Notes: generated by a model from the sequence alone, not told the origin. 64,000 nt of DNA from Flavobacteriales bacterium (GCA_025210295.1 JAOASC010000031.1:44350-108349); one strand, 5' to 3'; counted from the stretch's first letter, positions 18,189 through 53,089 are shown. Translations and numbers: made by a program.

Positions 18189-18191
18189 ATA

Positions 18192-21381: not shown

Positions 21382-21409
21382 TTATTTATTTTTTTAAACC
21401 CAGAACTAG

Positions 21410-39000: not shown

Positions 39001-40967
39001 TGTGCATAAATATCAGAAATAGCGTCGATAATCTTAGTTGTTTGCGTAGCATCCTCAATTTTTAAATTACTAACAATCTCTATCAACAATTCCAACTCAG
39101 CAGAAACCGCTAAAACTTTATTTTCTAATTCATTAGCATCTACAACTTTCTCTAATTGACCAATTGTTGTTTTTAAACCGTCTACCTTAACTAAATAGGG
39201 AGCAAGCGATTTCTCGTCTAACAAAAACTGAACACAACGCTGTGATATATCTTCTTGATGTTGGGCTATTTGCTGATCTAATTCCTCTACTAAATCAACT
39301 TCAACATAACGTAATTCTTTTAATTGTATAATACTTCCTCTAACGCCTCTTATCTCTCCCAAAACCTCAACAAAATGATCAATTAAATCGAAGTTTTTAA
39401 TTTTAATCGCACGCAATAAGTTTGCTACAATTTCTTGTGTTCTTTGTGTTTCTTCTAGTGTATGTTGTTTTACTTTTACAACTTTATCAAACTCATCAAT
39501 AGCTGAGGAAGCTGATTCTTTAATCGCTACTAAAGGCTCATGAATATCGGCTACTGTTATGCTATCAATCCAATGATAAGTATCCAAGACATCGTTGGCT
39601 CCCTTTACAATATCTAGGTATAAATTGGCGTAAGAATCTTCTTTGTAAATCAAACGAATCACCTCATTACATTCTGACATTGCTTTAACAATATCTTTAT
39701 TTCCTATCTTTTGTAATTCAGAATCGTTTTTTTCTGCTGGAACGAAACTATGATCTAAAAATGGTGTTTGCCAAATTTGAACCGCGTGATGCTTTTTTTG
39801 TTCATCATCATTCTTAAAGAAACACATTTCTCCATTGTCAAAAATAGAATAACCGTGGCAAATAATAGGGGTTTCTACTTTCTGTTCAATAATGTTGTAA
39901 CTTAACAAGATATATACTCCTGACACTTCATTGTAAAACACATAAAGAAAATCCTCACCATTGGGTGATGCAATTCTTTTTTCGAAAATCATATTTTCTA
40001 ATTGATTTTCGAACAGTTTATATTCCCCTGATTGCAGGTAGTAACCTTTAGAAAAAATCAGTCCATGGTCGTCTGGTAGTAACACTCCTGATTTTTCTAA
40101 TGCATCTATCCGTGTAACCGTTTTGATTTTATTGTTAAAAACCAAATAGCGGAACTCTTTTTCTTGATAGGGTTGTATTTTTAAAACAACTAGATTTCCA
40201 ACTACAGCGTAGTAAACTAAAGCATCGTCTAAGGTTTGGTCTTTATTCGCTACTGGCTCTGTATAAATGCCTTTTCCTGAAGCGGTATTGTCTTCAATTT
40301 TTATTGTTAAATCCCCTCCTACTGTTTCAACAAAAACAAGATCTTCGATAGAAATATGTGGATGTTCTCCGCTTACATGCTGGTCTCTTGTTGTTTTGAT
40401 CCATTGAAACTCATGTTGTTCAGGATATGCAAGTTCGTATTCAGAACGGTTATCAACATAAATTAATTGTTGGCCTTTAACATTCCATTTAAATGCCTTA
40501 ACATCGTTTACAGAATTTCCTACTTGAAAGACAAAATACAGGAAAGGACCTTGTTCTACAAACTTTAAAAACTCTGCATTTTTATAATACTTATAAAGAT
40601 TATGAAAATCTGTTTGAAACGCTTCGTCGTTAATTAAATCATACGCAATTGGAGTAAAGTTATGATCGGCATACGCATACAGACTAAAAACATCACTGAT
40701 CTTAATTTCAGTTCGAAGGCCTATATGTACATTGTACCCAAAAATAAAGGCGTCTCCAACTGGAACCATATCACGAGGTAAACAATTGTTTTCTGTAGTA
40801 ATTCGCTCAGTAGAGACTAATGCTGTTTCTATGGCTCCAAAAACATTTTTACGTTCAACATTTAACGCGTGTAATTGCTCTTGTAATTGCTTTCCATGTT
40901 TAGATAAACGATCCCTAATGATTTCGTAAGTACCGCCCTCCAATTGTATTTCTTCGTTACGCTCCAT
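36084..40967 (-). CDS. Giant (1627 aa) protein with an N-terminal beta-rich region, a long central coiled-coil or helical region and a C-terminal MoxR/AAA_5-like AAA+ ATPase domain
   Basis: Walker A 'LISPPGYGKTTL' (around nt 37117-37151), Walker B 'VMIYLDDIQH' and a sensor-1 region 'VAIVMAGNPYTESGDKFQIPDMLSNRADIY' resemble the MoxR/dynein-related AAA_5 clade. The central 400 aa or so are heptad-rich. Confidence 0.7.
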   Translation of the reverse strand: MERNEEIQLEGGTYEIIRDRLSKHGKQLQEQLHALNVERKNVFGAIETALVSTERITTENNCLPRDMVPVGDAFIFGYNVHIGLRTEIKISDVFSLYAYADHNFTPIAYDLINDEAFQTDFHNLYKYYKNAEFLKFVEQGPFLYFVFQVGNSVNDVKAFKWNVKGQQLIYVDNRSEYELAYPEQHEFQWIKTTRDQHVSGEHPHISIEDLVFVETVGGDLTIKIEDNTASGKGIYTEPVANKDQTLDDALVYYAVVGNLVVLKIQPYQEKEFRYLVFNNKIKTVTRIDALEKSGVLLPDDHGLIFSKGYYLQSGEYKLFENQLENMIFEKRIASPNGEDFLYVFYNEVSGVYILLSYNIIEQKVETPIICHGYSIFDNGEMCFFKNDDEQKKHHAVQIWQTPFLDHSFVPAEKNDSELQKIGNKDIVKAMSECNEVIRLIYKEDSYANLYLDIVKGANDVLDTYHWIDSITVADIHEPLVAIKESASSAIDEFDKVVKVKQHTLEETQRTQEIVANLLRAIKIKNFDLIDHFVEVLGEIRGVRGSIIQLKELRYVEVDLVEELDQQIAQHQEDISQRCVQFLLDEKSLAPYLVKVDGLKTTIGQLEKVVDANELENKVLAVSAELELLIEIVSNLKIEDATQTTKIIDAISDIYAQFNQINAALKKKRKVLLGREGKAEFNSQIKLISQSVVNFLDISETPEKCDEYLTKLMVQLEELEGKFSEFDEFITLVGEKREEVYNAFESRKIALIESRNKRATTLQQSAERILKGIKNRVANFKTPVEINGYFASDIMVGKIRDIIAQLIELKDAVKADDVQSQFKTVKEDALRQLKDKTELFVDGKDIIQMGKHQFSVNTQPLDLTIVLKNGEMCFHLTGTNYFEPVTNPEFLATESVWDQAYISENKQVYRAEYLAYQILQKLAIKEPVSETEFLMLEEKEQLAIVQQLMASKYEEGYAKGIHDVDAHLILKTALTIAKHADLLVYSSYERACAKFFWEKYIDVPQKEALNARLKAAGVVIEVFPETNEFKQLKTTLVQLMESFVMETNLYTAANITDAANYLFEEVCRGDQFILSQEALELYDQFNLYLTKVNAKKIFNQSLNSVDASAVSQILLMQNWLNAYLEATPKNMHLKAYVEEVAISVISSDQDKPKVIKVKTGQKLTGFQGNHTVVDADYDFDYNRFYAKMYDFKTVSVPKFEQYQTLKKEIIHAFKDELRLHEFKAKVMTSFVRNKLIDEVYFPLIGDNLAKQMGAAGENKRTDLMGMLLLISPPGYGKTTLMEYIANRLGLVFMKINGPTIGHQVTSLDPAEAPNASAKEEIEKLNLAFEMGDNVMIYLDDIQHCNPEFLQKFISLCDAQRKIEGVYKGKSKTYDLRGKKVAIVMAGNPYTESGDKFQIPDMLSNRADIYNLGDITGGKAAVFNLSYIENSLTSNPVLQRLVAKSFKDVYAFLKVVETGSQEGIAFEGNHSGQEIKEYTALLEKVIQVRDTLTKVNAQYIASAGQEDKYRTEPPFKLQGSYRDMNKIVEKLVPIMNDKELQTVILSHYENESQTLTTGAEANMLKFKELQGMLSPEEAQRWQVIKEVYQKSQKMSGLGEDNQTAQVLLQMEEITKGLGVIANVIGKASS

Positions 40968-41109
40968 GGCTTTATCTTGCTTGGTCTGCTCCTCTTTAGT
41001 CCAGTTAAGTATTCAGGAACAGTTCCTATTTTCTTTCTCCTGTTTATTAACACACGATGAACTCCATTAAAAACATAGAAAAAGGTATTGATTTTCTCTT
41101 GATGAATAA

Positions 41110-41131
41110 CCCAGCAGTATCAACTGCTGGG
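41110..41131 (-). terminator. Perfect 8-bp hairpin (CCCAGCAG-tatcaa-CTGCTGGG) between the flotillin stop and the giant ATPase gene. It may be an attenuator or a partial terminator
   Basis: It lies 24 nt downstream of the flotillin stop on the transcribed strand, in a 187-bp gap. The following U-tract is weak. Confidence 0.3.
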
Positions 41132-41154
41132 CTGAATAAATTATTTGATGATTT

Positions 41155-43299
41155 TTACATCAAATCCTTGGCATTGGTATCTCCTAAACCTGTTTTAGCA
41201 ACAAATTCAATTAACTGTGATAACAATCCTTTATCTTTTGACGATTGTGAGTCGTTCATTAACTTAAACAATAAAGAAGAAACGGTAAAGTTTTTAATAT
41301 CCTCTGATCCTAATCCAGATTGAGCAATTAATCCTTTTATCTTATCTACAACAGTACTCCCATCTTCTGTATTCATCAATTGATTTTTTACCTCATTAAT
41401 GACAGTACTTTTATCTGAGTATTGATCGATAGCTTTGGCATTTGAAATCGCTCCCATAATCTTATCAAAGAATACTGGCTCTCCACCAACGATATCGATA
41501 TTTGCTGATTTTAAAGCACTTGACAACACTTCTGCTTGAGCAGCTGCAATATCTTTTTGGATATTAATTTGTGCTAATTCTATTTCTTTTTCTTTAGCTA
41601 ATTTCAACTTAAACTCTTCATGCTCTTTACCTACACCATCAAGTTTTTTCATAGCTGCAGCTTTCTCCTCAATTCCTTTTGCTTCTGCTTCAAACTTTTT
41701 AGTCATTACATTCGCTTCTGTTAAGCCTTTTTCTTCCTGCGCTTTAGCTTTAGCTTTGATAACGTCAGCCTCTGCAACACCGATATTTGTATTCGCTTTG
41801 GCTTGAGCCATTGACTTCATCTCAATTCCTTTCGCTTCTGCTTCTGCTGTTGCTTCAATCACAGCTGCCTGCGCATTTCCTTGTTCTTCGGTTCCTTCTG
41901 CTTTAGCTTTCATCACTTTAGCTTCCGACAATCCAATTGCTGCTTTTTGAGTAGCTTCGGCATCTGCTAAAATTTTAATTGCTTCTGCTTCTTGATTAGC
42001 TGCTTGCATTTTAGCTTCTGCATCTATAATACGTTTCTTTGCTTCATATTCGGCTGCTTGTTGTGATGCTTCGGCTGCTTTTATTTGTTGAACTAATTGC
42101 TCTTGAGCTAATTTTTCAGCATTGGTAATTGCAACCGATTTTAAACGATCTGCTTCTGCAAATGCTTTGGTATCTTTTATTTTTTCTTCTTCATCAACAA
42201 CTGTCTTTTCAATTGCAACACGTTCTCTAATCGTTTCTTGAATGTTTTTACGTTCTACCTCTATTGCTTTTTCTTTTTCAATTTGAGCTAAGGTCACAAT
42301 ACGTTCTCTTTCGTTCATTTCAAGCGCTCTATCTTTTTCTACACGCTCGGCCTCCACAGCCATTGTTCGCTCTTTATTCTTTTCTGCTACAACAATTTGT
42401 CTGTTTTTATTCTCCTCTGCAACTTGAACTTCTTCGTCGGTAGCTATTCTAGCTTTTTCAGCTTTAAGACGCTCTTCTTGATTAACCTTTTCTATTTCAG
42501 CTGATTCTCTAGCTTTGATATTGGCAATTTCACGTGCTTGCTTCTCTTCTTTTTCAGCCAATTGACGTTCCATTTCCAAAATAGCTTCTCGTGTTTCTAC
42601 ATTTTGCTGTGTGATGATTTTTTCCTCATCTCTTTGGATTTGATTAGCTAAAATCTTTTGTTTAGCTGTTAACTCTGTAATTTTCTTAATCCCTTCAGAA
42701 TCTAAAATATTATTTGGACTTAGTGCATTGATATTTGTTTGCTCTAAATAATCAATTGCTGCATCATCTAATCGGTAACCGTTTAAATCTGTTCCAATAA
42801 TATCGATAATGGCTAATTTAAATTTTTCACGTTCGTTGTATAAATCAACAAAATCGATCTGCTTTCCTACGGTTTTTAAAGCTTCAGAAAACTTTGCTTC
42901 AAACAGTTCTATTATTGCTTGTTTTGATGCTGCTCTAGCACATCCAACTGATTGTGCAACCTTTATCACATCTTCTATTGATTTATTTACGCGAACAAAA
43001 AAAGCTACTTTAATATCAGCACGCATATTATCGGCACAAATTAAACCATCCGAACCACTACGTTCAATGACAATGTTCTTTAAGGAAATATCCATGATCT
43101 CTAATTTGTGTAAAACGGGGATCACTAAAATACCTCCAAACGAAACCTTGGTTCCGCCAACACCTGTTCGCACTAAAGCTTGCCCTTGTGCAGCTTTTTT
43201 ATAAAACCTAGAAATAATTGCAAAAGTCCCTAATAAGACTACTGCGATAACAATTGTAACAACTACAAAAACGTTTCCAAATAACTCTGATGTATCCAT
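41155..43299 (-). CDS. Flotillin-family protein (SPFH/band-7 domain plus long Ala/Glu-rich flotillin repeats), YqiK/FloT-like
   Basis: An N-terminal TM segment and an SPFH domain ('VRTGVGGTKVSFGGILVIPVLHKLEIMDISL') are followed by about 350 aa of EA-rich coiled coil ('AEAKGIE...'). Confidence 0.85.
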   Translation of the reverse strand: MDTSELFGNVFVVVTIVIAVVLLGTFAIISRFYKKAAQGQALVRTGVGGTKVSFGGILVIPVLHKLEIMDISLKNIVIERSGSDGLICADNMRADIKVAFFVRVNKSIEDVIKVAQSVGCARAASKQAIIELFEAKFSEALKTVGKQIDFVDLYNEREKFKLAIIDIIGTDLNGYRLDDAAIDYLEQTNINALSPNNILDSEGIKKITELTAKQKILANQIQRDEEKIITQQNVETREAILEMERQLAEKEEKQAREIANIKARESAEIEKVNQEERLKAEKARIATDEEVQVAEENKNRQIVVAEKNKERTMAVEAERVEKDRALEMNERERIVTLAQIEKEKAIEVERKNIQETIRERVAIEKTVVDEEEKIKDTKAFAEADRLKSVAITNAEKLAQEQLVQQIKAAEASQQAAEYEAKKRIIDAEAKMQAANQEAEAIKILADAEATQKAAIGLSEAKVMKAKAEGTEEQGNAQAAVIEATAEAEAKGIEMKSMAQAKANTNIGVAEADVIKAKAKAQEEKGLTEANVMTKKFEAEAKGIEEKAAAMKKLDGVGKEHEEFKLKLAKEKEIELAQINIQKDIAAAQAEVLSSALKSANIDIVGGEPVFFDKIMGAISNAKAIDQYSDKSTVINEVKNQLMNTEDGSTVVDKIKGLIAQSGLGSEDIKNFTVSSLLFKLMNDSQSSKDKGLLSQLIEFVAKTGLGDTNAKDLM

Positions 43300-43322
43300 G
43301 TTTTTTATCTATTTATTTTTTA

Positions 43323-43976
43323 TTAATGATTATACTTTTCTACGAGGAAATAATCCTCTTCTTTAATGTGGTCTAAGACCAAAACTTTATCTCCTTTTTT
43401 TACAGACGCTGCACTTTCGTGTGTTTTAATAAAAATGGTAAAGAATGACTCTCCAACCATTACATCTGCTTGTCCTTTTTGAGTTGAACTAGCCCCTAAT
43501 CGAACCTCTCCAATAGCGCCAATAAGATCATCTTCATCACTTTCTTTTTCTAATACTGCAAATAGTTTTACAAAAGGTGTTGTAAAGATTTTTGCAACAA
43601 ATAAACTCACAATAAAGATGGGAACTAACAAGGCTAAACTGAGGAGGAATGAAGTATTTCCTAAAATGTGATTAGACATTACCGACAACACCCACATTGG
43701 TATAGCCAAAAAAGTTAAAAACACCATAAAAGGAATTTTACCCAAATTAAAAAAGGCTAATATTTTATTTAAGGCAAATAAATTTGAGGCTGAATTCCCT
43801 TCTACTTCAATATCTGCATCCACATCTATGTCAGCGTCTATCTCTACATCAAAGTCTAAAAAATCGGTATCAACTGCTCCGATCAAGACAATCAACCAAT
43901 AGAACAGTACCAACACAAAAAGGGTTGTCGGGATAAAATTTACTCCCGAAAAAACAATATTTATTAATTCGTTCAT
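43323..43976 (-). CDS. YqiJ/NfeD-like membrane protein (DUF1449-type) paired with flotillin
   Basis: The protein has an N-terminal TM segment, an Asp-rich acidic loop ('DTDFLDFDVEIDADIDVDADIEVEG'), further TM helices and a C-terminal soluble beta domain. It lies directly upstream of the flotillin gene, as in yqiJ-yqiK. Confidence 0.6.
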   Translation of the reverse strand: MNELINIVFSGVNFIPTTLFVLVLFYWLIVLIGAVDTDFLDFDVEIDADIDVDADIEVEGNSASNLFALNKILAFFNLGKIPFMVFLTFLAIPMWVLSVMSNHILGNTSFLLSLALLVPIFIVSLFVAKIFTTPFVKLFAVLEKESDEDDLIGAIGEVRLGASSTQKGQADVMVGESFFTIFIKTHESAASVKKGDKVLVLDHIKEEDYFLVEKYNH

Positions 43977-43984
43977 TGTTCTTT

Positions 43985-44380
43985 TTATTGATGTGAGAAA
44001 TTAATCAAATCAGAAGCGTGCTCTGACAATAACAGACTCAAAGAATTTATACTTCCTTCAAGTTCGTTAAGATCTAAATTCTCCAATTGCAAGGTATCTC
44101 TAAAAATAACTTTGGTTCCTGTTTCATCTAATGTAAACGCTCCATGAATAATTGTTCTATTTTTTTCTAATAAAAACTTCAATGCCTCGATATTTGAAGC
44201 ATCTATTTCAAATAAAAATTGTTCTAAAATCAATATGGGGTTGGCACATCCAATCACTAAATTTTGCAATCCAAACTCTGGTTGATTGATTACAAAAACT
44301 TCGTCATCTGCATTTTCAAAGGTAATGTTATGCTCCAACTCTATTAAGTAGTTTTTTATCTTTTCGAAATGTGTCTTCAT
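43985..44380 (-). CDS. YbjN-domain protein (131 aa), paralog A
   Basis: Size and motifs ('PILILEQFLFE', 'RDTLQLENLDLNELEGSINSLSLL') fit YbjN. It is clearly paralogous to 50097..50492. Confidence 0.6.
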   Translation of the reverse strand: MKTHFEKIKNYLIELEHNITFENADDEVFVINQPEFGLQNLVIGCANPILILEQFLFEIDASNIEALKFLLEKNRTIIHGAFTLDETGTKVIFRDTLQLENLDLNELEGSINSLSLLLSEHASDLINFSHQ

Positions 44381-44521
44381 TGGTTTATTTTTATCTTTTT
44401 TCTTGTTTATAAATGTAATCTTTTTTTGTTTTGTTTTAGCTTTTTTTCATCATTTCTACTCTGCGGTTTGATTTTATTAATTTTTGTGCTTTTTCTCATT
44501 TTTTTCATCCCCCGACATCAA

Positions 44522-46117
44522 TCAATAAATTTTCCAATTTCCTTTTTTGTAGTAGGTATACAACACTGGGTTAAACAAGGTATTGACTGCTGTATTTGTA
44601 GTATCCACCATCGGCTTCCCAAACAATGTTATTGCTTTTGAAGCATCATTATTCAACCATTCTAAATCAAGTTTATCATAATCAAAATTAATCATCTTTT
44701 GTTTTAGCGCTGTTGAAGAATACTGTTTACTTCCCATAATCCAACCCCACTCTCCCATGGTTAAAATTTGACTATGCAATGGCAATGTATTAAACCCACC
44801 TGCTCGCATGCTTTTTTCAACACAATAAAATGCTTTACTAGCATAATAAGGGCTCCCCGCCTGAGTTATTATCGCTCCACTTTTTGTTAATCGTTGACTA
44901 CATAAGAAGTAAAATTCTCTGGTATATAATTTATTCAAATCTACATTGTTAGGATCTGGTAAATCAATAATAATAACATCATACAATATTTTATTATGTT
45001 CTAAAAACTGAAAAGCATCTTCGTGTTTAATCGTTACTTTTTGATGGTTTAAAGCTCCCTTATTCATCTCAAGAAACAACTCATTTTCCTTAGCCAGCTC
45101 TGTCATTTTCGGGTCTAAATCAACTAACGTTATCTCTTCTATGTCTTTATAGTTTAACAATTCTCGCACTGCACATCCATCTCCTCCTCCTAATACTAAT
45201 ACTCTTTTTTTGTTTTCTACAACATTAACTACTGGATGCACCAAAGGCTCATGATACATATATTCATCAAAAGAGGATAATTGTAAATTTCCATTAATAA
45301 ACAACGAGTAATTATCCTGCCATTGAGTCATGACTATTTTTTGATATTGTGTTTCTGTTTGGAACACTATTTTATCTCGATATTTTTTTTGATCTCCATA
45401 CAACACTATTGGTTTAGCAAAATACAATCCTACAAAAATTACAACTCCAACAACCATAAACCAAACCGTTAATATTTTTCTATATTTTTCACTGATTACT
45501 TTTCTTAGGTATAAAAAAGTAAACAATGCTACTGTAAAATTTAACAGTCCTAAGACAAAAGGAGTATATGTTAATCCTAAAAAAGGCATACCTACAAAAG
45601 CAAAAAACAATCCACCGACTAAGCTCCCATAATAATCTTTTTCTAAAACTGAAGCTACATTTACTTTTAGCTCTTCAAACTCCTCATTTAATCTTGTTAC
45701 TAAAGGAATTTCTAAGCCTATTAATAACCCCACAACAATAGACAAGGCGTAAATAAATACTGGAGAATATCTCCCATAGGTAATGTATACAGCTAACGCA
45801 CAAAAAGAAACTAAAAAGGAAAGAATCAGTTCTAAGTAAATAAACTTAACCAACAACTCTTTTTCTATCAACTTGCTTAACCGACTTCCAAATCCCATTG
45901 CAAAAAGCATGGTGGACACAATTAAAGCAAATTGAACTACAGCATTCCCAATAAAATAAGAAGCTAACGTTGATAAGACATATTCTGCTACAATACCACT
46001 TATTCCTGTAGCAAACAATGCTATTTTAAGAACTGCCGACTTTCGTTTATTTGTTTGATCTACTACGCTCAATTTATTTTCTTTTTTTAAAGCGTCCAAT
46101 CCAATAATATAGAGCAT
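44522..46117 (-). CDS. speE: Polyamine aminopropyltransferase (spermidine synthase family) fused to an N-terminal polytopic membrane domain
   Basis: About 220 aa of TM helices are followed by the spermidine synthase core ('VLVLGGGDGCAVRELL', 'ITLVDLDPKM', 'DVIIIDLPDP'). Confidence 0.85.
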   Translation of the reverse strand: MLYIIGLDALKKENKLSVVDQTNKRKSAVLKIALFATGISGIVAEYVLSTLASYFIGNAVVQFALIVSTMLFAMGFGSRLSKLIEKELLVKFIYLELILSFLVSFCALAVYITYGRYSPVFIYALSIVVGLLIGLEIPLVTRLNEEFEELKVNVASVLEKDYYGSLVGGLFFAFVGMPFLGLTYTPFVLGLLNFTVALFTFLYLRKVISEKYRKILTVWFMVVGVVIFVGLYFAKPIVLYGDQKKYRDKIVFQTETQYQKIVMTQWQDNYSLFINGNLQLSSFDEYMYHEPLVHPVVNVVENKKRVLVLGGGDGCAVRELLNYKDIEEITLVDLDPKMTELAKENELFLEMNKGALNHQKVTIKHEDAFQFLEHNKILYDVIIIDLPDPNNVDLNKLYTREFYFLCSQRLTKSGAIITQAGSPYYASKAFYCVEKSMRAGGFNTLPLHSQILTMGEWGWIMGSKQYSSTALKQKMINFDYDKLDLEWLNNDASKAITLFGKPMVDTTNTAVNTLFNPVLYTYYKKGNWKIY

Positions 46118-46965
46118 CCTACATAAGCAAACGCTTCTACTAATCCTGCTCCAACATTAGGCTTCTCCTGATTCACCAATTCATCTGTTAGTTTTTGCCC
46201 TGGCAACAGCAACTTATCTGCCACCACCCTTACAACTGGTAAAATGGCTAATGCAATAACAGAGTTATACAAAATAGAATAAGCCGAAACCTCCCAAGAA
46301 ATAAAATCTCCTTGAATCCCATGTCTTATCAAATTTGCGATCGATATAATTACCCCAGAATAGGCTATTCCAACAGCAAAGTTATTTTTCTTAATCTCAT
46401 CTAATAGGCTAAAATTTAATATTGCATTATATACAAAAGTTGAAAGTACAAACATTAGCATTCCTACTCCCCAAAAAATTATTGTACTTAAAAACCCATT
46501 GATCACATCATGGTGACTATCTCCCGATACTGCACCATATATAATTAATCCAGTAGCAACAGAAATTGCAGCCTCTAAAACTCCTACCCCAACATTCTGA
46601 TCTTCAACTAATTCATGCTTTAGATTCATCCTTCTAAGAATCAAGAAGTCATTCAATACAATACTCAAGTTAAGTAATATAATACTAATCAAAGCATACA
46701 AAGAAAAATCAGTTAGATCGTCTACCAAATTACCTGTTGTTCCTCCAGTAAGTGCACCTCCCAACGCGATCACAATACCCGACAAGTACCCAACATTGGC
46801 AAAAGCAAAAGCAAAATTATCTTGTTCTACCAATTCATGGTTCATATCAATTTCTTTATGCAATAATTGATAAACTTTCCTGCTAACAACTAAAAAAAAT
46901 AAACTTAAAATTGTATAAGCAAATGTTGCAAAATAACTATCGGGATTTGTAAAAAATTCGTTCAT
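46087..46965 (-). CDS. Membrane protein with two DUF350-like repeats
   Basis: Two hydrophobic modules of about 130 aa each contain 'NVGYLSGIVIALGGALTG' / 'AVGIAYSGVIISIANLI' and 'HELVEQDN' / 'HELVEDQN'. The gene overlaps the speE start by 31 nt. Confidence 0.6.
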   Translation of the reverse strand: MNEFFTNPDSYFATFAYTILSLFFLVVSRKVYQLLHKEIDMNHELVEQDNFAFAFANVGYLSGIVIALGGALTGGTTGNLVDDLTDFSLYALISIILLNLSIVLNDFLILRRMNLKHELVEDQNVGVGVLEAAISVATGLIIYGAVSGDSHHDVINGFLSTIIFWGVGMLMFVLSTFVYNAILNFSLLDEIKKNNFAVGIAYSGVIISIANLIRHGIQGDFISWEVSAYSILYNSVIALAILPVVRVVADKLLLPGQKLTDELVNQEKPNVGAGLVEAFAYVGCSILLDWTL

Positions 46966-46967
46966 AA

Positions 46968-47480
46968 TTAATTTCCTGGTAATAATTTATCTATTGCAAA
47001 TGGGTTGATCTTTTTTCCTAAATGCGCTTCAAACTCAAATTTACTCCATCGTTCAATACATATAAACTCGTCTTTTTCATTCCAATACATCCAAGAAGTT
47101 AATTCTGACCAGCCTTCTGCCCCTTCTTTTTGATACTCTCCAAAAGCTTCCTCATCTAATTTATACACCTCGCTGTTATAGATTAAGTTTTCAGGAACGG
47201 AGGCATAAGTTAAAACTTCATCTTTAAAACGAGGTGCCACCTTAAGGATTTCAGCTGGCACTGTCATATACAATACACCATCATCAGCCACCTCTAAAAA
47301 AAGCACCGAACTACCATCGCTGAGTTTATACTCTCTAGATTTAAAATTGTTTTCCCATAGGTAGTGGTAAACCTCTTGTACTACCCAGTTTTTCATATCA
47401 TACTCCAAAGTAGCCCCAATAGTTAAATTATGAAGTGTTGCCTCAACCGGCTCCTCTTTTTTCTTAAAAAATCCAAACAT
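46968..47480 (-). CDS. DUF4178-like soluble protein
   Basis: The N-terminal 'L.IGATLEYDMKNWVVQEVYHY.WENNFKSREYKL' is paralogous to the N-terminus of the next gene. Confidence 0.5.
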   Translation of the reverse strand: MFGFFKKKEEPVEATLHNLTIGATLEYDMKNWVVQEVYHYLWENNFKSREYKLSDGSSVLFLEVADDGVLYMTVPAEILKVAPRFKDEVLTYASVPENLIYNSEVYKLDEEAFGEYQKEGAEGWSELTSWMYWNEKDEFICIERWSKFEFEAHLGKKINPFAIDKLLPGN

Positions 47481-47523
47481 TTTAATTTTATTTTTTGTTC
47501 AAACAAGCTCTTTTCAATGACTT

Positions 47524-48276
47524 TTACTTTCCAAAGCCACCACCTCCACCGCGGAATCCACCGCCGCCACCTCCAGACCAGCCACCTCCACCAACATGAT
47601 GGTATCTACCAGAGTTTCCTGTATGAATATATGTTCCATTACAACCTCTAGACATGATGACGATGAAAACAACCAAAATAATCATAAAAAGGATAATCTT
47701 AACAGGTGTTGGATTATCATCCCCTCCTCCTTTGTAGGTCGAATTGTAACCGTGTTTACGTTGTAATTTTCTTTCTCTAGCTCTATTCGGATCTCCCGGT
47801 GTAACGTTGCTTATTTCTAACTCTTGTACCTTATGACCATGACAAGCTTCTATATCTCCATCCCAATTTTCTACTGAAATAAATTCTTCTCCTTGACTAT
47901 CGTAATAATCCCATAAATAAAATGACTCCCAATAATTATCTTCATCATTTCTCGCTTCGGAATTAAATTTTTCATTAAAGGAATATGTTTTGCCTTGATA
48001 TCCAATTGTTGGTATAGGATCTGCATAAGGTATAAAATCAGATGATTTCAGCGGTATATCAATCTCTTTACTAAAAAGTATTTTTAATACACCATCATCC
48101 TCTACCTCTAAATACCCTTCTTCATCTCCAGCATATATTTTATATTCTTTGCTGGTAAAATTATTCCCCCATTTGTAATGATATACCTCTTCTACAATCC
48201 ATGTTTTTAGATTGTAATCAAACGTATAGCCTACTTTAAGCTCTGTTAATTTTGGTTCGAAAGATGAATCACTCAT
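47524..48276 (-). CDS. DUF4178-like domain protein with a TM anchor and a C-terminal poly-Gly tail
   Basis: The segment 'LKVGYTFDYNLKTWIVEEVYHYKWGNNFTSKEYKI' is paralogous to the preceding gene. It is followed by a TM helix ('IILFMIILVVFIVIM') and the tail 'GGGGWSGGGGGGFRGGGGGFGK'. Confidence 0.5.
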   Translation of the reverse strand: MSDSSFEPKLTELKVGYTFDYNLKTWIVEEVYHYKWGNNFTSKEYKIYAGDEEGYLEVEDDGVLKILFSKEIDIPLKSSDFIPYADPIPTIGYQGKTYSFNEKFNSEARNDEDNYWESFYLWDYYDSQGEEFISVENWDGDIEACHGHKVQELEISNVTPGDPNRARERKLQRKHGYNSTYKGGGDDNPTPVKIILFMIILVVFIVIMSRGCNGTYIHTGNSGRYHHVGGGGWSGGGGGGFRGGGGGFGK

Positions 48277-48277
48277 A

Positions 48278-48652
48278 TTATTTGTTAAAACTTGGGGTTA
48301 ATTGATTAATTGTTCCTCTTTTTACTTCTTTTAACTCCATTATCTCTGCTTCAAATATCGTTTTAATATACGCTAATGCCTCTGTTAATTCATAAGATTC
48401 ATTACATGTAAAAAAATCTAATGCTACATACTTGTATTCTGGCCAAGTATGAATGGCTATATGACTTTCTTTAATCACAATAACCCCACTTACCCCAATT
48501 GGGTTAAAATGATGTATTGTTGTATTCACAACAGATAAACTGGCGATTTTCGCAGCTTCTAATAACGTTTTTTCTACAAGAGCTGTGTCATTGATTTTTT
48601 TAGCATCACAACCATGTAATTCAATTAATGTATGAAAACCAAGCGTCTGCAT
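48278..48652 (-). CDS. speD: S-adenosylmethionine decarboxylase proenzyme (pyruvoyl-dependent, SpeH/SpeD class 1)
   Basis: The processing and active-site motif 'VIKESHIAIHTWPE' is present, with self-cleavage at the E-S bond. The 124-aa size fits the family. Confidence 0.8.
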   Translation of the reverse strand: MQTLGFHTLIELHGCDAKKINDTALVEKTLLEAAKIASLSVVNTTIHHFNPIGVSGVIVIKESHIAIHTWPEYKYVALDFFTCNESYELTEALAYIKTIFEAEIMELKEVKRGTINQLTPSFNK

Positions 48653-49186
48653 TTATCTTCTCTTTGAAATTCGTTGGGGAGAATATTTCACTAAAGGTTT
48701 CCCAGTATATTTTGCCACCACTTTACCTAATTCTAAAGCTTCTTCGTAGTCATCAAACTGACTTATTAATAACCTTCCTAAATGTTTTGGAGTTAGAAAA
48801 ACAAGATCGTGTTTATAGATATAATCTCCTCCTGTTTCGTAATAACTTTCGGTGTTATCATCATAACTGTCATCATAACTATACCTTTTAGAAATGATAC
48901 TTATATCCCTGTATTTCACCAAATCATTCTCCTTAGTATATGTTACACCAAAGACATTTAATTGATTTTTAAACGTTTTCTCTTTATAGTTAATTATTAT
49001 CATTTCTTTTGCAAACAGCATTATTGAACCTGCTACAAATAAAAAAGTTCCAAAGAGAAGAGAGACCCAATTACCTCCACCAAAAAAACTTAAAACTACT
49101 GCAAAACCACCAGTAACTAAAAAAGCTGCACCTGTTACCCTATGAGAAATACCAAAACTATATCCTTTATCTATTTTTTTTATCAT
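48653..49186 (-). CDS. Hypothetical membrane protein (2 N-terminal TM helices plus a cytoplasmic domain) between pspA and speD
   Basis: The hydrophobic N-terminus is 'GAAFLVTGGFAVVLSFFGGGNWVSLLFGTFLFVAGSIMLFA'. There is no known motif. The track start at 49189 is TTG. The ATG is at 49186. Confidence 0.4.
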   Translation of the reverse strand: MIKKIDKGYSFGISHRVTGAAFLVTGGFAVVLSFFGGGNWVSLLFGTFLFVAGSIMLFAKEMIIINYKEKTFKNQLNVFGVTYTKENDLVKYRDISIISKRYSYDDSYDDNTESYYETGGDYIYKHDLVFLTPKHLGRLLISQFDDYEEALELGKVVAKYTGKPLVKYSPQRISKRR

Positions 49187-49369
49187 CAACCTTTAAGTAA
49201 CTCCAAATGCTTTTAACAATTCGGCTCATCATTTTAAAAAACGGAAAAATAATTTTATCGAAAAAAAATCCGGAAAAAGATGAACAACAATATCTAAAAA
49301 CAGCTCCAGCAACATTTTATAAAAAGTCTAACAAACCATAGCGTTTGTTAGACTTCTAGTTATTAGAAA

Positions 49370-50068
49370 TTACATTCCCATTTTTTTCTTCAACTCTGCT
49401 AATGCATCAGCAGAATCTGCATCAACATTATCTAGAGCGGCATCAATTTCTTCATCTACGCTTTTAGATTGCTCAGCAATATCTCCATAAGCTTCTGCTA
49501 ACGCTTCTTCTTCGGCAACTTTGTCTTTCATTTTTTCTAACATTGCTATTGTTCCTGTAGAATCTACTTGAGACAATTGCTTGTTGATCTTCTTCGTTGC
49601 TTTACTTACTTTCATACGAGCTTTTAATGTTTTCAACTCATTCTCGTATTTACTAATATTTGATTTTACTTTGTTGATATTCGCTTCTAATTGCGCTATT
49701 GATTGATCAAACTTTTGAACTTCTGCTTGCGCTCTAGCTCCATTTTCTTTTGCTTGTTGCACTCTTTTTAACGCTTCAGTAGCCAAACGATCTGCTTCAG
49801 CAGCATCCATTTTCCCTTCTTTTGCATTATTTAAAAGCGTCATCGCTTTTTTCTCAAAATCCTCAACTTGAAATTTAGATTTATTCAAATCAGCATTTGA
49901 ACGAATTCTTAACGCTTTAACTTCAGCTAAAGCTTTTAGAGAAGCATCTAAATCTTTCTTTAGATCTCTAATTCCTTGTTCTGTTAATTTTATTGGGTCC
50001 TCTAACTTATCTACCAAGTTATGTGCCTCTGATTGTCCTATTTTAAAAAGTCTTCTAAATATACTCAT
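49370..50068 (-). CDS. pspA: PspA/IM30 (phage shock protein A / Vipp1 / YjfJ) family protein
   Basis: The N-terminus 'MSIFRRLFKIGQSEAHNLVDKLEDPIKLTEQGIRDLKKDL' is typical of PspA/IM30. The rest is coiled-coil over 232 aa. Confidence 0.85.
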   Translation of the reverse strand: MSIFRRLFKIGQSEAHNLVDKLEDPIKLTEQGIRDLKKDLDASLKALAEVKALRIRSNADLNKSKFQVEDFEKKAMTLLNNAKEGKMDAAEADRLATEALKRVQQAKENGARAQAEVQKFDQSIAQLEANINKVKSNISKYENELKTLKARMKVSKATKKINKQLSQVDSTGTIAMLEKMKDKVAEEEALAEAYGDIAEQSKSVDEEIDAALDNVDADSADALAELKKKMGM

Positions 50069-50096
50069 GATTGTCTTTTTTTACGTATTCAAATTA

Positions 50097-50492
50097 TTAC
50101 TTCGAGAACTCTATCAATTCTCTATTATATTCTGTCATCAATAAACTCAATGAGTTGATTGATCCCTCTATTTCATTTCGATCTAAATTTTCGATTTGTA
50201 AGGTATCTCTAAACGAAACTTTGTTCTCGTGCAAAACAAAAGCCCCGTGTACAATATCTCTATTCTTTGTCAACAAACTTTTGTATAACTCAGGTGTTTC
50301 ATTCTTTACCTCAAAAAGAAATTGCTCCATAATTAATATTGGATCTTCACAGTCTAATACTAAATTAAAAATACCTTCTTCCTCTCTTTCTATTACAAAT
50401 AGTCCATTTTCTTCGTCTTCCACTTTTATTACATAGTTTAAATCAACTAAATAAGCTTTAATTTTTTGGAAGTGATTTTGTTGTGTTTCCAT
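50097..50492 (-). CDS. YbjN-domain protein (131 aa), paralog B, first gene of the pspA operon
   Basis: It is the same length as 43985..44380, with shared blocks ('PILIMEQFLFE', 'RDTLQIENLDRNEIEGSINSLSLL'). Confidence 0.6.
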   Translation of the reverse strand: METQQNHFQKIKAYLVDLNYVIKVEDEENGLFVIEREEEGIFNLVLDCEDPILIMEQFLFEVKNETPELYKSLLTKNRDIVHGAFVLHENKVSFRDTLQIENLDRNEIEGSINSLSLLMTEYNRELIEFSK

Positions 50493-50606
50493 AAGTCGTA
50501 ATTAAATTTTTTATAAATCTACAAACAACTAATTAATTTAGCAAGAAAAAACTAATATTTTTTGCATTTATTTTGTTTGACCACATTTTTTACTAACTTT
50601 GTTGGC

Positions 50607-51344
50607 ATGTCGACAATAGGAATTAACATCAAAAAAATAAGAAGTGTCAAAGGACTTAATCAAACTGCTTTTGCCAACCTTTTTGGATTAACACGTGCCA
50701 ACATTGGTTCTTATGAAGAATTAAGGGCTGAACCAAAAATTGATACAATCATCAAGATAGCCACACATTATAAAATACCTATTGATAAATTAGTTAGAAA
50801 AGAGTTAACGGTTAACGAAATTTCAAATTTTGATATCTTTTCTAAAGTTCCATCATATCATACAGAAAAACAACCCAAAGGAATCAAACTGGTCAACCAA
50901 AATGATTTAAAAGACTATCCTAAACTAAAAAAAGACACTAAATACCTAAGTAACCTTCAATCGATAAACCTACCTATTCAACATATAAAAGCTAAAAATA
51001 TTATCATTTTTAATGAGGGGAACACTTTATTCTCAGGAAAAGACAGTTTCTATCACGGTGATTTTCTTTATCTTGAGGCTATAGAAAACAAAACCTCAAG
51101 CTTTTTGGGAGTTATCGTTGATGCTGAACAATTTCACAAAGGGCTCATTACTATTCACAAAAATAAAATCTCTATACAACCTTTAAACAACAATAACGAT
51201 AAAAGGGAAATTTTATATACCGATCAACTTGAGATTTGGGAAATAAAAGGAAAGTTTACTACAGAAATTTCGCACGAAAATACACTTGTTACACAATTGA
51301 AAAATATCGAAGAGCGATTAAGAAAAATCGAACAAGAAAAATAA
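50607..51344 (+). CDS. XRE-family helix-turn-helix transcriptional regulator, divergent from the pspA operon
   Basis: The N-terminal HTH is 'IKKIRSVKGLNQTAFANLFGLTRANIGSYE'. The C-terminal roughly 170 aa are an unknown domain. The track start at 50562 is an upstream TTG. The ATG is at 50607. Confidence 0.65.
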   Translation: MSTIGINIKKIRSVKGLNQTAFANLFGLTRANIGSYEELRAEPKIDTIIKIATHYKIPIDKLVRKELTVNEISNFDIFSKVPSYHTEKQPKGIKLVNQNDLKDYPKLKKDTKYLSNLQSINLPIQHIKAKNIIIFNEGNTLFSGKDSFYHGDFLYLEAIENKTSSFLGVIVDAEQFHKGLITIHKNKISIQPLNNNNDKREILYTDQLEIWEIKGKFTTEISHENTLVTQLKNIEERLRKIEQEK

Positions 51345-51471: not shown

Positions 51472-52275
51472 ATGGGATTTTATATTGGCGGTATAATACT
51501 GTTAGTTGTAGCAGTAATATTTTTCATCATCCAAAAGAAAAGAAGCGGCAAACTTCATCATATAGAGTACAATGATACAACAAGCATTAATCAAATTGTA
51601 GAAAATCACAACGAAATGTCTGGCTCTTTTGGCCCTGGATCATTTAGTCTTTATAGTGAGGTAAAAGGGATTGCTACAGCAAACACCCCTATAAAAACTG
51701 AGTTCTCACATCAAGAATGTGTATATTACAAATCTACTGTGACCCGAGAATATGAAGTATTAGAAAAAACAAAAGATGCCAGTGGCAAATCCTCAAAAAG
51801 ATGGGTAAGAAAGTCTGAAGTTGTTGCTAACAATGAAAATAAGTCTCATGATTTTATGATTAGAGATAATTCTGGGGAAATACTACTCAATACTGAAGGC
51901 TCGGAATTACATGCAAAAAAGACGTTTTCAAAATTTGAAGAGGGAGACGACGCTCCTAAGGGAGGATTAAACATTTCAATTGGTAGTTTTTCAATTTCCT
52001 CTGGTTCTAATTATAGAACAATTGGTTATAAATATGAAGAGTACGCTATACCAACAAAAACCCCACTTTATGTAATAGGTGATGCCAACGATCGATCAGG
52101 TCGATTGCAAATATCAAAACCGACAGATAAGAGACCTTTTATCGTTTCCACCAAATCTGAAGATGAAATAACAAAACAGCTAAGCTCATCAGCCAAATGG
52201 ATGTTTTACGGAGCTATAGGATGCGCTGTTGCGGCAGGCACATTAATTGTTATTGGAGTGATTAAAAGCTTTTAA
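51472..52275 (+). CDS. Membrane protein with N- and C-terminal TM anchors, possibly a GIDE-domain family member
   Basis: An N-terminal TM segment plus a 'KKR' stop-transfer is followed by a beta-rich middle with 'ECVYYKS' and a C-terminal TM segment 'MFYGAIGCAVAAGTLIVIGVI'. Confidence 0.35.
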   Translation: MGFYIGGIILLVVAVIFFIIQKKRSGKLHHIEYNDTTSINQIVENHNEMSGSFGPGSFSLYSEVKGIATANTPIKTEFSHQECVYYKSTVTREYEVLEKTKDASGKSSKRWVRKSEVVANNENKSHDFMIRDNSGEILLNTEGSELHAKKTFSKFEEGDDAPKGGLNISIGSFSISSGSNYRTIGYKYEEYAIPTKTPLYVIGDANDRSGRLQISKPTDKRPFIVSTKSEDEITKQLSSSAKWMFYGAIGCAVAAGTLIVIGVIKSF

Positions 52276-52276
52276 A

Positions 52277-53089
52277 TTACTCTGACAAAACCACAATAGG
52301 TACAGGAGAATGCATTGTTAACTTTCTCGAAATGCTTTTGTGGAACAATCTTTCAAAAAAGTTTCTTTTACGAGAGACAACTACTAAGAGATTGATATTG
52401 TTCGCCACAATATAATCCAAGATTTCTGCTTCATAGTCAGTATTTTCCAGAAACTTAAAGGTATGTTCAAAACCAGTAAATATATCATCTACATCAGCGG
52501 CATGCTCTACAAATTTAGTTGGATCAACTTTAGATAAATCTTCCGAGACATTGATTAAATGAAATGCTCCATTTAGCAACCTTGCAAGTTCTTTGACCGA
52601 CTCAAAAACCCCTATGTTTTTTAAATTTTGTAAGTCTGTAGAAACCGCTATCTTTAACTTATCTTCAAAACGACAATCATATGGTATAGCAATTAACGGA
52701 ATGTTTATTTCTTGAATTAATGTCGCGGTATTACTTCCAACAAAAGTCTCTTTTAGCCCAGAAGCTCCTGTTGTCCCCATAATCACTAAATCAACATTAT
52801 AATTTTTTGAACAGTGACTAACTGAAGCTGTTAAATCTCCATTATAGTCAACAGTTTCAATTTTAGCTGCTGGAAACTTTTCTAAGGCCTCGGCTTTTAC
52901 TTTCTCCAATCCACTTACACTATCTTCTCTCAATACATCTGTCAAGTCGATCATCACAGATGAGTTTGGCACAGCATAAGCATTCAACAGAATAATTTCT
53001 GCTTCAAGCTTTTCTGAAAGATTTATAGCATATTCTAACGCATTAAATGCTGCTTTAGAAAAATCAGTTGGAACAAGAATTTTTTTCAT
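52277..53089 (-). CDS. Universal stress protein, tandem UspA domains
   Basis: The N-terminus 'MKKILVPTDFSKAAFNALEYAI' and the repeated 'DLVIMGTTGASG' / 'LLVVVSRKRN' with C-terminal 'HSPVPIVVL' fit a tandem Usp protein. Confidence 0.8.
   Translation of the reverse strand: MKKILVPTDFSKAAFNALEYAINLSEKLEAEIILLNAYAVPNSSVMIDLTDVLREDSVSGLEKVKAEALEKFPAAKIETVDYNGDLTASVSHCSKNYNVDLVIMGTTGASGLKETFVGSNTATLIQEINIPLIAIPYDCRFEDKLKIAVSTDLQNLKNIGVFESVKELARLLNGAFHLINVSEDLSKVDPTKFVEHAADVDDIFTGFEHTFKFLENTDYEAEILDYIVANNINLLVVVSRKRNFFERLFHKSISRKLTMHSPVPIVVLSE

Follow-up and report, generated by a model that had tools for sequence, protein, structure and literature searches.

A near-invariant Gly-Lys tail accompanies a membrane-fused aminopropyltransferase in a composite PspA- and flotillin-linked gene array

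A 64,000-nucleotide stretch of DNA from an uncultured Flavobacteriales-like bacterium (the window), part of a 577-kb contig of JGI metagenome 3300039008 with relatives among the Flavobacteriales, carries a minus-strand array in which genes for a PspA/IM30 protein, an S-adenosylmethionine (AdoMet) decarboxylase (SpeD) and a membrane-fused aminopropyltransferase of the SpeE type lie together with genes for DUF4178, DUF350 and flotillin-like proteins. A preliminary description had reported an eight-gene operon at 44522-50492, and all eight open reading frames (ORFs) are present on the minus strand where it had placed them. They are, however, only the upstream two-thirds of an array of 12 co-oriented genes that covers 14.4 kb (36084-50492) and continues beyond 44522, on the same strand, with genes for a second CesT-like protein, a YqiJ-like protein, a flotillin-like protein and a 1627-residue AAA+ ATPase. 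Also missed at that stage was a conserved C-terminal Gly-Lys tail, found in the window on one of two DUF4178 proteins and in most relatives on a neighbouring lipoprotein. What is new here is this near-invariant tail and its movement among three kinds of protein: a lipoprotein, a fusion of DUF4178, a transmembrane (TM) helix and the lipoprotein domain, and a shorter DUF4178-TM-tail form.

Families were assigned by Pfam and NCBIfam profile searches with curated cut-offs, and the earlier assignments (YbjN, PspA, SpeD, DUF4178 twice, DUF350 twice and a spermidine-synthase domain) all lie above these thresholds. The array opens with a CesT/Tir-like (YbjN-like) chaperone gene (50097-50492; CesT_Tir_1 169.6 bits, YbjN 32.1 bits), followed after 28 nt by the gene for a PspA/IM30 (ESCRT-III-like) protein (49370-50068) that matches PspA_IM30 over its full length (148 bits). 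The latter is not an E. coli-type equivalog (TIGR02977 48.6 versus 242.95 bits; NF007974 31.5 versus 336) and, judged by these scores, is a member of the PspA/IM30 superfamily only. Beyond a 180-nt gap lie the gene for an orphan 2-TM protein (48653-49189) and that for a class 1b pyruvoyl AdoMet decarboxylase, SpeD (48278-48652; AdoMet_dc 129.6 bits), which exceeds the class 1b equivalog cut-off of TIGR03330 (133.1 versus 75.65 bits) and carries the motif KESHIAIHTWPE with the ES cleavage site for processing. The next gene (47524-48276; DUF4178 71.9 bits) encodes DUF4178a, in which the DUF4178 domain is followed by one TM helix, at about residues 190-208 by hydropathy, and by a Gly-rich tail. 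Its soluble paralog DUF4178b (46968-47480; 69.5 bits) is 34% identical to it and begins after a gap of 43 nt; no informative structural neighbour of DUF4178 was found. A tandem-DUF350 polytopic membrane protein of the YjfL family (46087-46965), with about eight TM helices by hydropathy, matches DUF350 in two stretches (178.5 bits). The eighth gene encodes a 531-residue fusion enzyme (44522-46117; Spermine_synth 127.2 bits), in which a seven-TM domain resembling the major facilitator superfamily (MFS) is joined to an aminopropyltransferase domain of the PRK03612 family. The eight genes had been described as packed with overlaps or gaps of 30 nt or less, which is true of five of the seven junctions and fails at the 180-nt and 43-nt gaps.

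The fusion enzyme matches NF002956/PRK03612 over its full length (556.8 bits, cut-off 472), whereas its score against the canonical speE model TIGR00417 (150.5 bits) falls below the cut-off of 249.55. The Spermine_synth domain occupies residues 286-467 and is preceded by about 245 residues of membrane helices. Because homologues start there, the true start is probably the TTG at 46072, 15 codons into the listed ORF; this start leaves a 14-nt A-rich spacer after the DUF350 stop codon, in place of the 31-nt overlap given by the listed ATG. The motifs of aminopropyltransferases that bind decarboxylated AdoMet (dcAdoMet) and those for catalysis are invariant across 83 homologues, and the catalytic site is intact in the fusion enzyme. 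The fold of its catalytic domain is nearest to the broad-substrate polyamine aminopropyltransferases 1uir, 6qmm and 2e5w.

The membrane domain has an MFS-like seven-TM fold with a motif-A-like sequence (MGxGSRLS) in the TM2-TM3 loop. Five intramembrane charges (E45, E96, E136, R142 and D161) are kept even in a homologue of only 31% identity on a contig of 68% G+C. The conserved motif and buried charges indicate that the domain is functional and transporter-like and more than a simple anchor, contrary to the earlier picture of a synthase merely tethered to the membrane. Topology was assessed from Lys plus Arg counts over the 83 sequences, which are 4.4, 2.0, 2.9 and 3.8 for the N terminus and loops 2-3, 4-5 and 6-7 (inside) and 0, 0.2 and 0 for loops 1-2, 3-4 and 5-6 (outside). 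Seven spans with the N terminus inside would place the catalytic domain outside the cytoplasm. This assignment is uncertain, as a single membrane pass by residues 166-204, with the catalytic domain inside, would suit the counts about equally well; the segment after TM7 is also rich in Lys and Arg, and the TM5/TM6 region is modelled at low confidence, with residues 154-207 given as one helix by AlphaFold2 (AF2)/DSSP, again at low confidence.

Close relatives carry an extra gene between those for DUF350 and SpeE (L002:8292-9992, L001, L004:1355-3037 and L005:3019-4689), at the place of the window's junction at 46072-46087. Its product is a polytopic membrane protein of 556-566 residues without a Pfam or NCBIfam family. 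The gene is absent from the window and from L003, so that its presence varies within an otherwise syntenic array, and the window's ATG at 46117, which opens the extended SpeE ORF, stands where the inserted gene starts in L002. Separately, one metagenome-assembled genome (MAG) of the Cyclobacteriaceae has, about 5 kb downstream of its main module, a second SpeE-like gene (L072:16947-18757, minus strand; 490 residues; PRK03612 257 bits, below the cut-off) together with a short SpeD-like gene. Examined as a potential canonical pathway, this pair proved to be likewise divergent and of the membrane type, and so tells nothing of such a pathway.

Relatives of the fusion enzyme were collected at one genome per species, giving 80 loci with enzymes of 52-85% identity, nearly all from Bacteroidota and two from Neomarinimicrobiota, onto which the window's proteins were mapped by tblastn and hidden Markov models (HMMs). 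At 69 of these loci a gene for a lipoprotein of about 250 residues lies directly upstream of the DUF350 or SpeE gene. The lipoprotein belongs to no Pfam or NCBIfam family. Its tail is disordered, rich in Ser, Arg, Gly and Tyr, and ends ...SSSRY-x-SSSS-TRSRSGG[FYITSV]GK-COOH, commonly as ...RSRSGGFGK-COOH. Gly-Lys is terminal in 71 of 72 lipoprotein copies, the sole exception being a broken ORF. Among 1913 ORFs of at least 80 residues from the 80 loci, an end of the form G[GSA]?[FYW]G[KR] occurs only in ORFs at this position, which are the lipoprotein genes and the DUF4178a homologues of L001 and L002. The number of tail proteins can also vary, with three tandem paralogous lipoproteins (ending SFSSGGK, SFSRGGK and SYSSGGK) upstream of a single fusion enzyme at L051:6416-9837.

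Neither tblastn nor HMM searches of the window gave a homologue of the lipoprotein, which its nearest relatives L001 and L002 also lack. The window's DUF4178a ends ...SGRYHHVGGGGWSGGGGGGFRGGGGGFGK-COOH, in a Gly-rich tail that is extracytoplasmic by prediction. In the DUF4178a proteins of all three, the TM helix is followed by ...SGRYHH, a Gly-rich stretch and FRGGGGGFGK-COOH, a tail that shares its RY and RGGFGK-end motifs with the lipoprotein tails of the 69 loci. Ten close clusters share this DUF4178-TM-tail architecture, as do 19 more distant representatives, each of the latter ending in Gly-Lys.

The association was also examined in reverse, by scanning all JGI metagenome contigs for DNA that encodes RSRSGGFGK followed by TAA. 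The scan returned 83 matching stretches, 80 of which were analysed, and about 75 of the 80 proved to be the tail lipoprotein beside DUF350 or the fusion enzyme (49 with the enzyme within 4 kb, most of the others on contigs too short to tell). Four or five matches look like chance, about the number estimated for the information content of the pattern. The tail motif is essentially exclusive to the neighbourhood of the membrane aminopropyltransferase and DUF350.

Searching the whole library with DUF4178a gave 195 DUF4178 representatives, of which 148 were fetched. Nineteen of the fetched proteins, 20 with the window's lineage, are extended at the C terminus and end in Gly-Lys, and the only other extended forms with a lipoprotein domain, P0152 and P0209, are truncated. 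Twelve of the extended proteins join DUF4178, a TM helix and the lipoprotein domain (lipoprotein HMM E <=1e-25), ten of them complete and Gly-Lys-ended; about ten are short DUF4178-TM-tail forms like that of the window. On a contig of 68% G+C, one of the short forms has DUF350, the fusion enzyme and a Band_7-SHOCT gene as neighbours; another stands ahead of a tandem DUF350 gene. As Rosetta-stone fusions, these proteins tie the cytoplasmic DUF4178 domain to the extracytoplasmic tail protein. They show the conserved element to be the tail, whatever scaffold carries it, and in every form the tail is predicted to lie outside the cytoplasmic membrane, by virtue of either a lipobox or a single TM helix with its N terminus inside. 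In L167, a 68% G+C contig, a Band_7-SHOCT gene (8918-9904, minus strand) is convergent to the DUF350, TM-SpeE and DUF4178-TM-GGK genes; a variant with Band-7/SHOCT in place of the CesT-PspA dyad, which this contig matches, is mentioned in the section on these operons in Popp et al. (PMC11237479).

The other components of the neighbourhood are less constant. DUF4178 is found at about 66 of the 80 loci, SpeD at about 50, a K+ channel at 40, DUF350 at 33, PspA/CesT at 15 and flotillin/AAA+ at 4. The commonest order, seen at about 38 Flavobacteriaceae loci, is SpeD, K+ channel, DUF4178, lipoprotein and SpeE, a few of these loci being without the channel. At 15 loci, from Cytophagales, Bacteroidales, Flavobacteriales and Neomarinimicrobiota, the genes are those for CesT-PspA, DUF4178, the lipoprotein, DUF350 and SpeE, to which SpeD and the K+ channel may be added, whereas L063, L069 and L074 have YqiJ-flotillin-AAA+ instead of PspA upstream of the same core; the PspA module is attached to this core in L037, L055 and others. 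Metagenome loci repeat the pattern of attached modules, with DUF350 adjoining the enzyme in most of them and PspA adjoining the module in 18 of about 75. The AAA+ gene follows the flotillin gene in L002, L063, L069, L074 and five metagenome loci. We therefore describe the core as the fusion enzyme, the lipoprotein and DUF4178, often with SpeD; DUF350 joins in the PspA- and flotillin-linked arrays, and PspA/CesT and flotillin/AAA+ take each other's place as accessories.

All 12 genes of the array are found together again only in L002, an independent MAG in which most genes are 85-98% identical at the protein level, the exceptions being the 2-TM protein (49%) and the XRE regulator (66%), and sub-arrays recur in dozens of genomes and metagenome contigs. 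Together these recurrences argue that the arrangement did not arise by chance, and the linkage of PspA to SpeD, membrane SpeE, DUF350 and DUF4178 that the preliminary description had proposed is indeed conserved outside this genome. The K+ channel, of the voltage-gated type (Ion_trans 127 bits, e.g. L015:7952-8755), lies between SpeD and DUF4178 in about 40 of the 80 loci (L006-L046) and after SpeD in many metagenome loci; it is not in the window. According to the same section of Popp et al. (PMC11237479), a K+ channel also occurs in yjf-type operons.

The 180-nt region between pspA and the 2-TM gene holds a hairpin with a T-run (49324-49355, minus strand), whose 13-bp stem lies directly 3' of the pspA stop codon. 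Its folding energy is -21.5 kcal/mol (z = -4.4 versus shuffled sequences), and it is kept in L002, the nearest relative, with one compensatory change from A-U to G-C. The hairpin probably terminates or attenuates transcription, or stabilises the pspA mRNA, so that the genes downstream of it may be expressed at a level different from that of pspA. Divergent to the array lies a gene for an XRE-family regulator (50562-51344, plus strand; HTH_3 30.9 bits, HTH_19), homologues of which are found divergently upstream of CesT-PspA in L002, L061, L072 and nine metagenome loci; from this position, the protein is a candidate regulator of the array.

The orphan 2-TM protein has two hydrophobic segments and a C-terminal soluble domain. 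It has no Pfam, NCBIfam or PADLOC family, nor does the C-terminal domain alone match Pfam, and it occurs only in L002 (49% identity by tblastn, 52% by pairwise alignment). A possible identity as a diverged lipoprotein domain was ruled out (hhalign probability 0.7%). Between the window and L002 (5206-5751) the 2-TM gene has only about 50% identity, against 85-98% for most of the genes around it and 91% at the DNA level for the 180-nt spacer just upstream; it is a local hot spot of divergence or replacement.

Downstream of the fusion enzyme, after a gap of 141 nt, the array continues with a second CesT/Tir-like chaperone (43985-44380; CesT_Tir_1 174 bits), 56% identical to the first, and a YqiJ/NfeD-like membrane protein (43323-43976) whose match to YqiJ_N is weak (E 0.0057, 17.3 bits versus a cut-off of 23). 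Homologues of the latter directly precede the flotillin-like gene in L002, L069 and L074, an arrangement also seen in the published operon type. The flotillin-like protein (41155-43299; 714 residues) consists of an N-terminal TM helix (residues 11-29), an SPFH/Band_7 domain and a long coiled coil. Its full-length sequence matches no family, flotillin-specific Pfam models included, and the Band_7 match (32.6 bits, cut-off 23.6) appears only when the N-terminal 260 residues are scanned alone, with the coiled coil removed. After a further 187 nt comes the gene for the 1627-residue ATPase (36084-40967), made up of DUF3686 (635.6 bits), DUF7902 (89.1 bits) and AAA (35.6 bits) domains.

Two small ORFs without a family (35445-36056 and 34910-35542, minus strand, mutually overlapping as listed) follow the AAA+ gene and may be the last genes of the array; no homologues were found in the 80 genome loci. 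Convergent to the array end is a gene for a 1262-residue protein with DUF7948, SBBP and Por_Secre_tail domains, a type IX secretion substrate (31083-34871, plus strand). Just upstream of the XRE regulator lie genes for a GIDE-domain membrane protein (51472-52275, plus strand; 116.7 bits), which is kept at the same place in L002, and a tandem universal stress protein (52277-53089, minus strand; Usp 111.4 bits), and this region together with the array may form a wider stress island. Nine array proteins and the GIDE protein gave no specific defence-system match in PADLOC, only generic coiled-coil matches for PspA and a generic methyltransferase-fold match for SpeE. No other polyamine genes were found among 20 further ORFs of the window. 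Elsewhere in the window are two ribonucleotide reductase gene pairs (16428-19466, minus strand; 20332-23767, plus strand). The small subunit at 18192-19466, which adjoins a 586-residue large subunit, has an N-terminal ATP-cone (79 bits), an arrangement known from some Flavobacteriia.

Taken together, these observations lead us to propose, with a probability of about 0.7, that the locus is an envelope-maintenance array that aminopropylates an acceptor other than putrescine at the membrane, rather than the cell's ordinary spermidine pathway, with PspA and flotillin as accessories. SpeD, given its equivalog-level match, would make dcAdoMet and supply it to the fusion enzyme. The PRK03612-type enzyme would in turn transfer the aminopropyl group at the membrane to its acceptor, a step suggested by published work on other members: bacterial fusions of this type are reported to be uninvolved in spermidine or spermine synthesis, in a passage of PMC12803844 that cites Li et al. 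2019. With this report, the PRK03612 type of the enzyme and its score below the speE cut-off, the "complete aminopropyl-polyamine branch" first read into the locus is probably wrong. Co-occurrence and fusions show DUF4178, the Gly-Lys-ended extracytoplasmic tail and, in PspA- or flotillin-linked arrays, DUF350 to be recurrent partners of the enzyme, and in the window it is DUF4178a that carries the tail. PspA/CesT and flotillin/YqiJ/AAA+ could then be interchangeable remodelling or scaffolding accessories that sense or buffer the consequences for the membrane.

Four points weigh against this proposal. In the roughly 38 Flavobacteriaceae loci, neither PspA nor flotillin nor a detectable DUF350 gene lies within 10 kb of the module, so that the PspA link is facultative and DUF350 is not universal. 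The nearest folds are aminopropyltransferases with a broad polyamine range, and a free polyamine acceptor other than putrescine is therefore conceivable. The "no spermidine" result concerns other members of the family and comes by way of papers that cite it. Lastly, the hairpin may mean that pspA and the aminopropylation genes are transcribed partly independently.

As to the acceptor itself, we offer a more specific and speculative suggestion, which we regard as doubtful though worth stating: that it is the epsilon-amine of the invariant C-terminal Lys of the Ser/Arg/Gly-rich extracytoplasmic tail, modified on the outer face of the membrane. A Lys epsilon-amine sits on a four-carbon arm and so mimics putrescine. 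The acceptor tail would be on the neighbouring lipoprotein in most relatives and on the DUF4178a-TM-tail chimera in the window. The catalytic domain would be periplasmic and would receive its dcAdoMet from SpeD by way of the MFS-like domain, which might act as a dimer to carry it through the membrane. Aminopropylation would leave a spermidine-like group at the tip of the protein tail, a chemical convergence with what YgiB-YgiC and YjfM-YjfC could make on Gly-Gly ends. Since a ligase that joins spermidine to a peptide carboxylate and a transferase that aminopropylates Lys would both yield a polyamine-tipped tail, the suggestion would also explain why the ligase of the E. coli operon seems to be "replaced" by SpeD and SpeE. 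A difficulty is that seven spans with the N terminus inside would put the catalytic domain across the membrane from the source of dcAdoMet.

The same topological problem burdens the idea that the enzyme aminopropylates the head-group amine of a membrane lipid (phosphatidylethanolamine or an amino lipid), with the MFS-like domain binding or flipping the lipid by analogy with MprF, and with PspA and flotillin responding to surface charge. Several observations would suit it: the polytopic domain to which the catalytic domain is joined has conserved charges within the membrane, lipids or amines are carried by several of its MFS structural neighbours (e.g. SPNS2, FLVCR and VMAT2), the gene neighbourhood ties the module to proteins of membrane state (PspA, flotillin and DUF350), and Popp et al. 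speak, in the section concerned, of "aminopropylation of other substrates" (PMC11237479). Yet it gives the conserved Gly-Lys tail and DUF4178 no role, and we consider it unlikely.

Somewhat less likely still is a genuine free-polyamine branch, in which SpeD and membrane SpeE would make spermidine, or a longer or branched polyamine, at the membrane, possibly for export by the MFS-like domain, and so stabilise membranes repaired by PspA. Flavobacteria typically contain homospermidine, not spermidine, which counts against it. All catalytic residues are intact, SpeD is an AdoMet decarboxylase at equivalog level, the best folds are those of broad-specificity polyamine aminopropyltransferases, with a DL-x-DP motif like that of the thermospermine and Thermus enzymes, and an MFS-like domain with buried acidic residues would suit the transport of a polycation. 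Against these stand the reported non-involvement of the family in spermidine and spermine synthesis, the score below the canonical speE cut-off, and the near-obligatory adjacent protein with its invariant Gly-Lys end, which a free-polyamine product leaves unexplained.

We give similarly little credence to the possibility that the terminal Lys is a site of covalent attachment to peptidoglycan, or a sorting or binding motif, and that the aminopropyltransferase acts elsewhere. Braun's lipoprotein is the precedent, a lipoprotein with a functionally essential terminal Lys: E. coli Lpp ends ...YRK, and that Lys is linked to peptidoglycan by L,D-transpeptidases. The tail lipoprotein, extracytoplasmic and with an invariant terminal Lys that follows closely on Arg and aromatic residues, would fit such a role. 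However, no L,D-transpeptidase gene was seen in the arrays, though no search was aimed at one, and a motif found almost only beside the membrane aminopropyltransferase or DUF350 (about 75 of 80 pattern matches) is not what a general anchoring signal would lead one to expect. Finally, that pspA and SpeD/SpeE are merely neighbours, in two or three unrelated transcription units side by side, is very improbable: the strong hairpin in the 180 nt that follow pspA, the spacing of 141 nt before CesT2 and of 187 nt before the AAA+ gene, and the absence of PspA from the module in most Flavobacteriaceae would agree with it, but CesT-PspA adjoins the module in the 15 genome and 18 metagenome loci, the association is published for Proteobacteria in the part of PMC11237479 that treats it, the module has a Band_7-SHOCT gene next to it on a contig of 68% G+C, and all 12 genes are co-oriented.

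The interest of aminopropylation of a non-putrescine acceptor goes beyond this locus. An AdoMet decarboxylase together with a membrane-fused "spermidine synthase" is encoded in thousands of bacterial genomes, reportedly some of them from pathogens, and the pair apparently does not make polyamines; the target of the fused enzyme, which travels with PspA/ESCRT-III-like and flotillin membrane systems, has been in question since 2019. The Gly-Lys tail offers a definite candidate for the substrate, open to test by mass spectrometry, and the E. coli peptide--spermidine ligases YgiC and YjfC, still unexplained, may follow a logic in common with it. If the tail is in fact modified, this would be a new bacterial post-translational modification, and the long-sought substrates of both enzyme families would be identified. 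The window itself adds little to the published picture of gene neighbourhoods; its main value is comparative, in exposing the candidate substrate.

Compared with known aminopropyltransferases, canonical or broad in range (T. thermophilus 1uir, Synechococcus 6qmm, P. horikoshii 2e5w and E. coli SpeE 3o4f), the window's enzyme has about 245 extra N-terminal MFS-like residues. For the tail, a partial precedent is offered by diatom silaffins, in which Lys epsilon-amines in Ser/Lys/Gly-rich peptides bear aminopropyl units (PMC3820600). Silaffins and Braun's lipoprotein are analogies only to the Gly-Lys tail, on which any modification is hypothetical.

The E. coli yjfIJKLMC operon resembles the array at the family level, through the PspA-family protein YjfJ, the CesT-like YjfI and the DUF350 protein YjfL, and to that extent the parallel drawn in the preliminary description holds. 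Direct similarity is marginal (YjfJ to PspA E 4e-4, YjfL to DUF350 E 2e-3, YjfI to CesT no match). In E. coli, yjfM and ygiB (L081:8388-9026 and L083:2245-2916) encode DUF1190 lipoproteins directly upstream of yjfC and ygiC, with Ser/Arg/Gly-rich tails that have an RGG[FY]G motif and a Gly-Gly end, that of YjfM ending ...TVSRGGYGRSSSARGHWGG; the tails of the window's kind end in Gly-Lys instead. The lipoprotein HMM has no significant match to YjfM or to DUF4178a, so that the resemblance of the tails is a short-motif argument and not one from homology. Unlike the window, yjf and tolC-ygiBC have an ATP-grasp peptide--spermidine ligase (YjfC or YgiC) and no aminopropyltransferase, and they are without SpeD, DUF4178 or a flotillin gene. 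Conversely, the 12 proteins of the array gave no match to an ATP-grasp glutathionylspermidine-synthetase-like ligase, DUF2491 or DUF1190. The name "peptide--spermidine ligase" is said to come from Pederick et al. in 2023. RefSeq applies it to both YjfC and YgiC, and the physiological substrate is described as unknown in PMC11762307.

The aminopropylation half of the array has closer counterparts. Li, Kurihara, Kim, Liang and Michael reportedly described, in 2019 (Biochem J 476:2579), clusters of an MFS-spermidine-synthase-like fusion, a class 1b AdoMet decarboxylase and DUF350. The window has the same class 1b decarboxylase and MFS-like domain fused to a spermidine-synthase-like domain, with DUF350 nearby. 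Passages citing Li et al. 2019 make no mention of the Gly-Lys tail protein. Both the coupling of PspA to the membrane spermidine-synthase-like operon and the parallel with yjf are described, again with reference to Li et al. 2019, in section 19 of Popp et al. 2024 (mSystems, PMC11237479), so that the coupling first noted at this locus is correct as an association and is not new. The section also suggests that aminopropylation of other substrates might alter membrane structure.

Section 19 of PMC11237479 sets out three groups. Group 1 has CesT/Tir-PspA, a TM-Band-7-flotillin protein, a novel AAA+ ATPase and YqiJ; group 2 has CesT/Tir-PspA, a seven-TM-fused spermidine-synthase-like protein, an eight-TM YjfL/DUF350 protein, DUF4178 and a novel lipoprotein, Ctha_1186 (example operon AAN56744-AAN56747); the third is the E. 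coli yjf type with the ATP-grasp ligase. The upstream part of the window's array is like group 2 in its dyad, seven-TM fusion, eight-TM DUF350 protein and DUF4178, and in their orientation and general order. It differs in having SpeD and the orphan 2-TM gene inserted after pspA, in lacking a separate Ctha_1186-type lipoprotein gene, the Gly-Lys tail being instead on a second, TM-anchored DUF4178 paralog, and in running on into the flotillin module. The downstream part has the group 1 order of CesT/Tir paralog, putative YqiJ-like protein, TM-Band_7-coiled-coil protein and giant AAA+ ATPase, including the N-terminal non-ATPase region of the last. Unlike group 1, it has its own CesT gene and no second pspA, and it sits downstream of the aminopropylation module. 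A single array of groups 1 and 2 was not found described in the text of PMC11237479. The window joins the two behind a single pspA at the head of the array, and the locus is thus a composite variant, without the lipoprotein and with its tail on the second DUF4178 protein.

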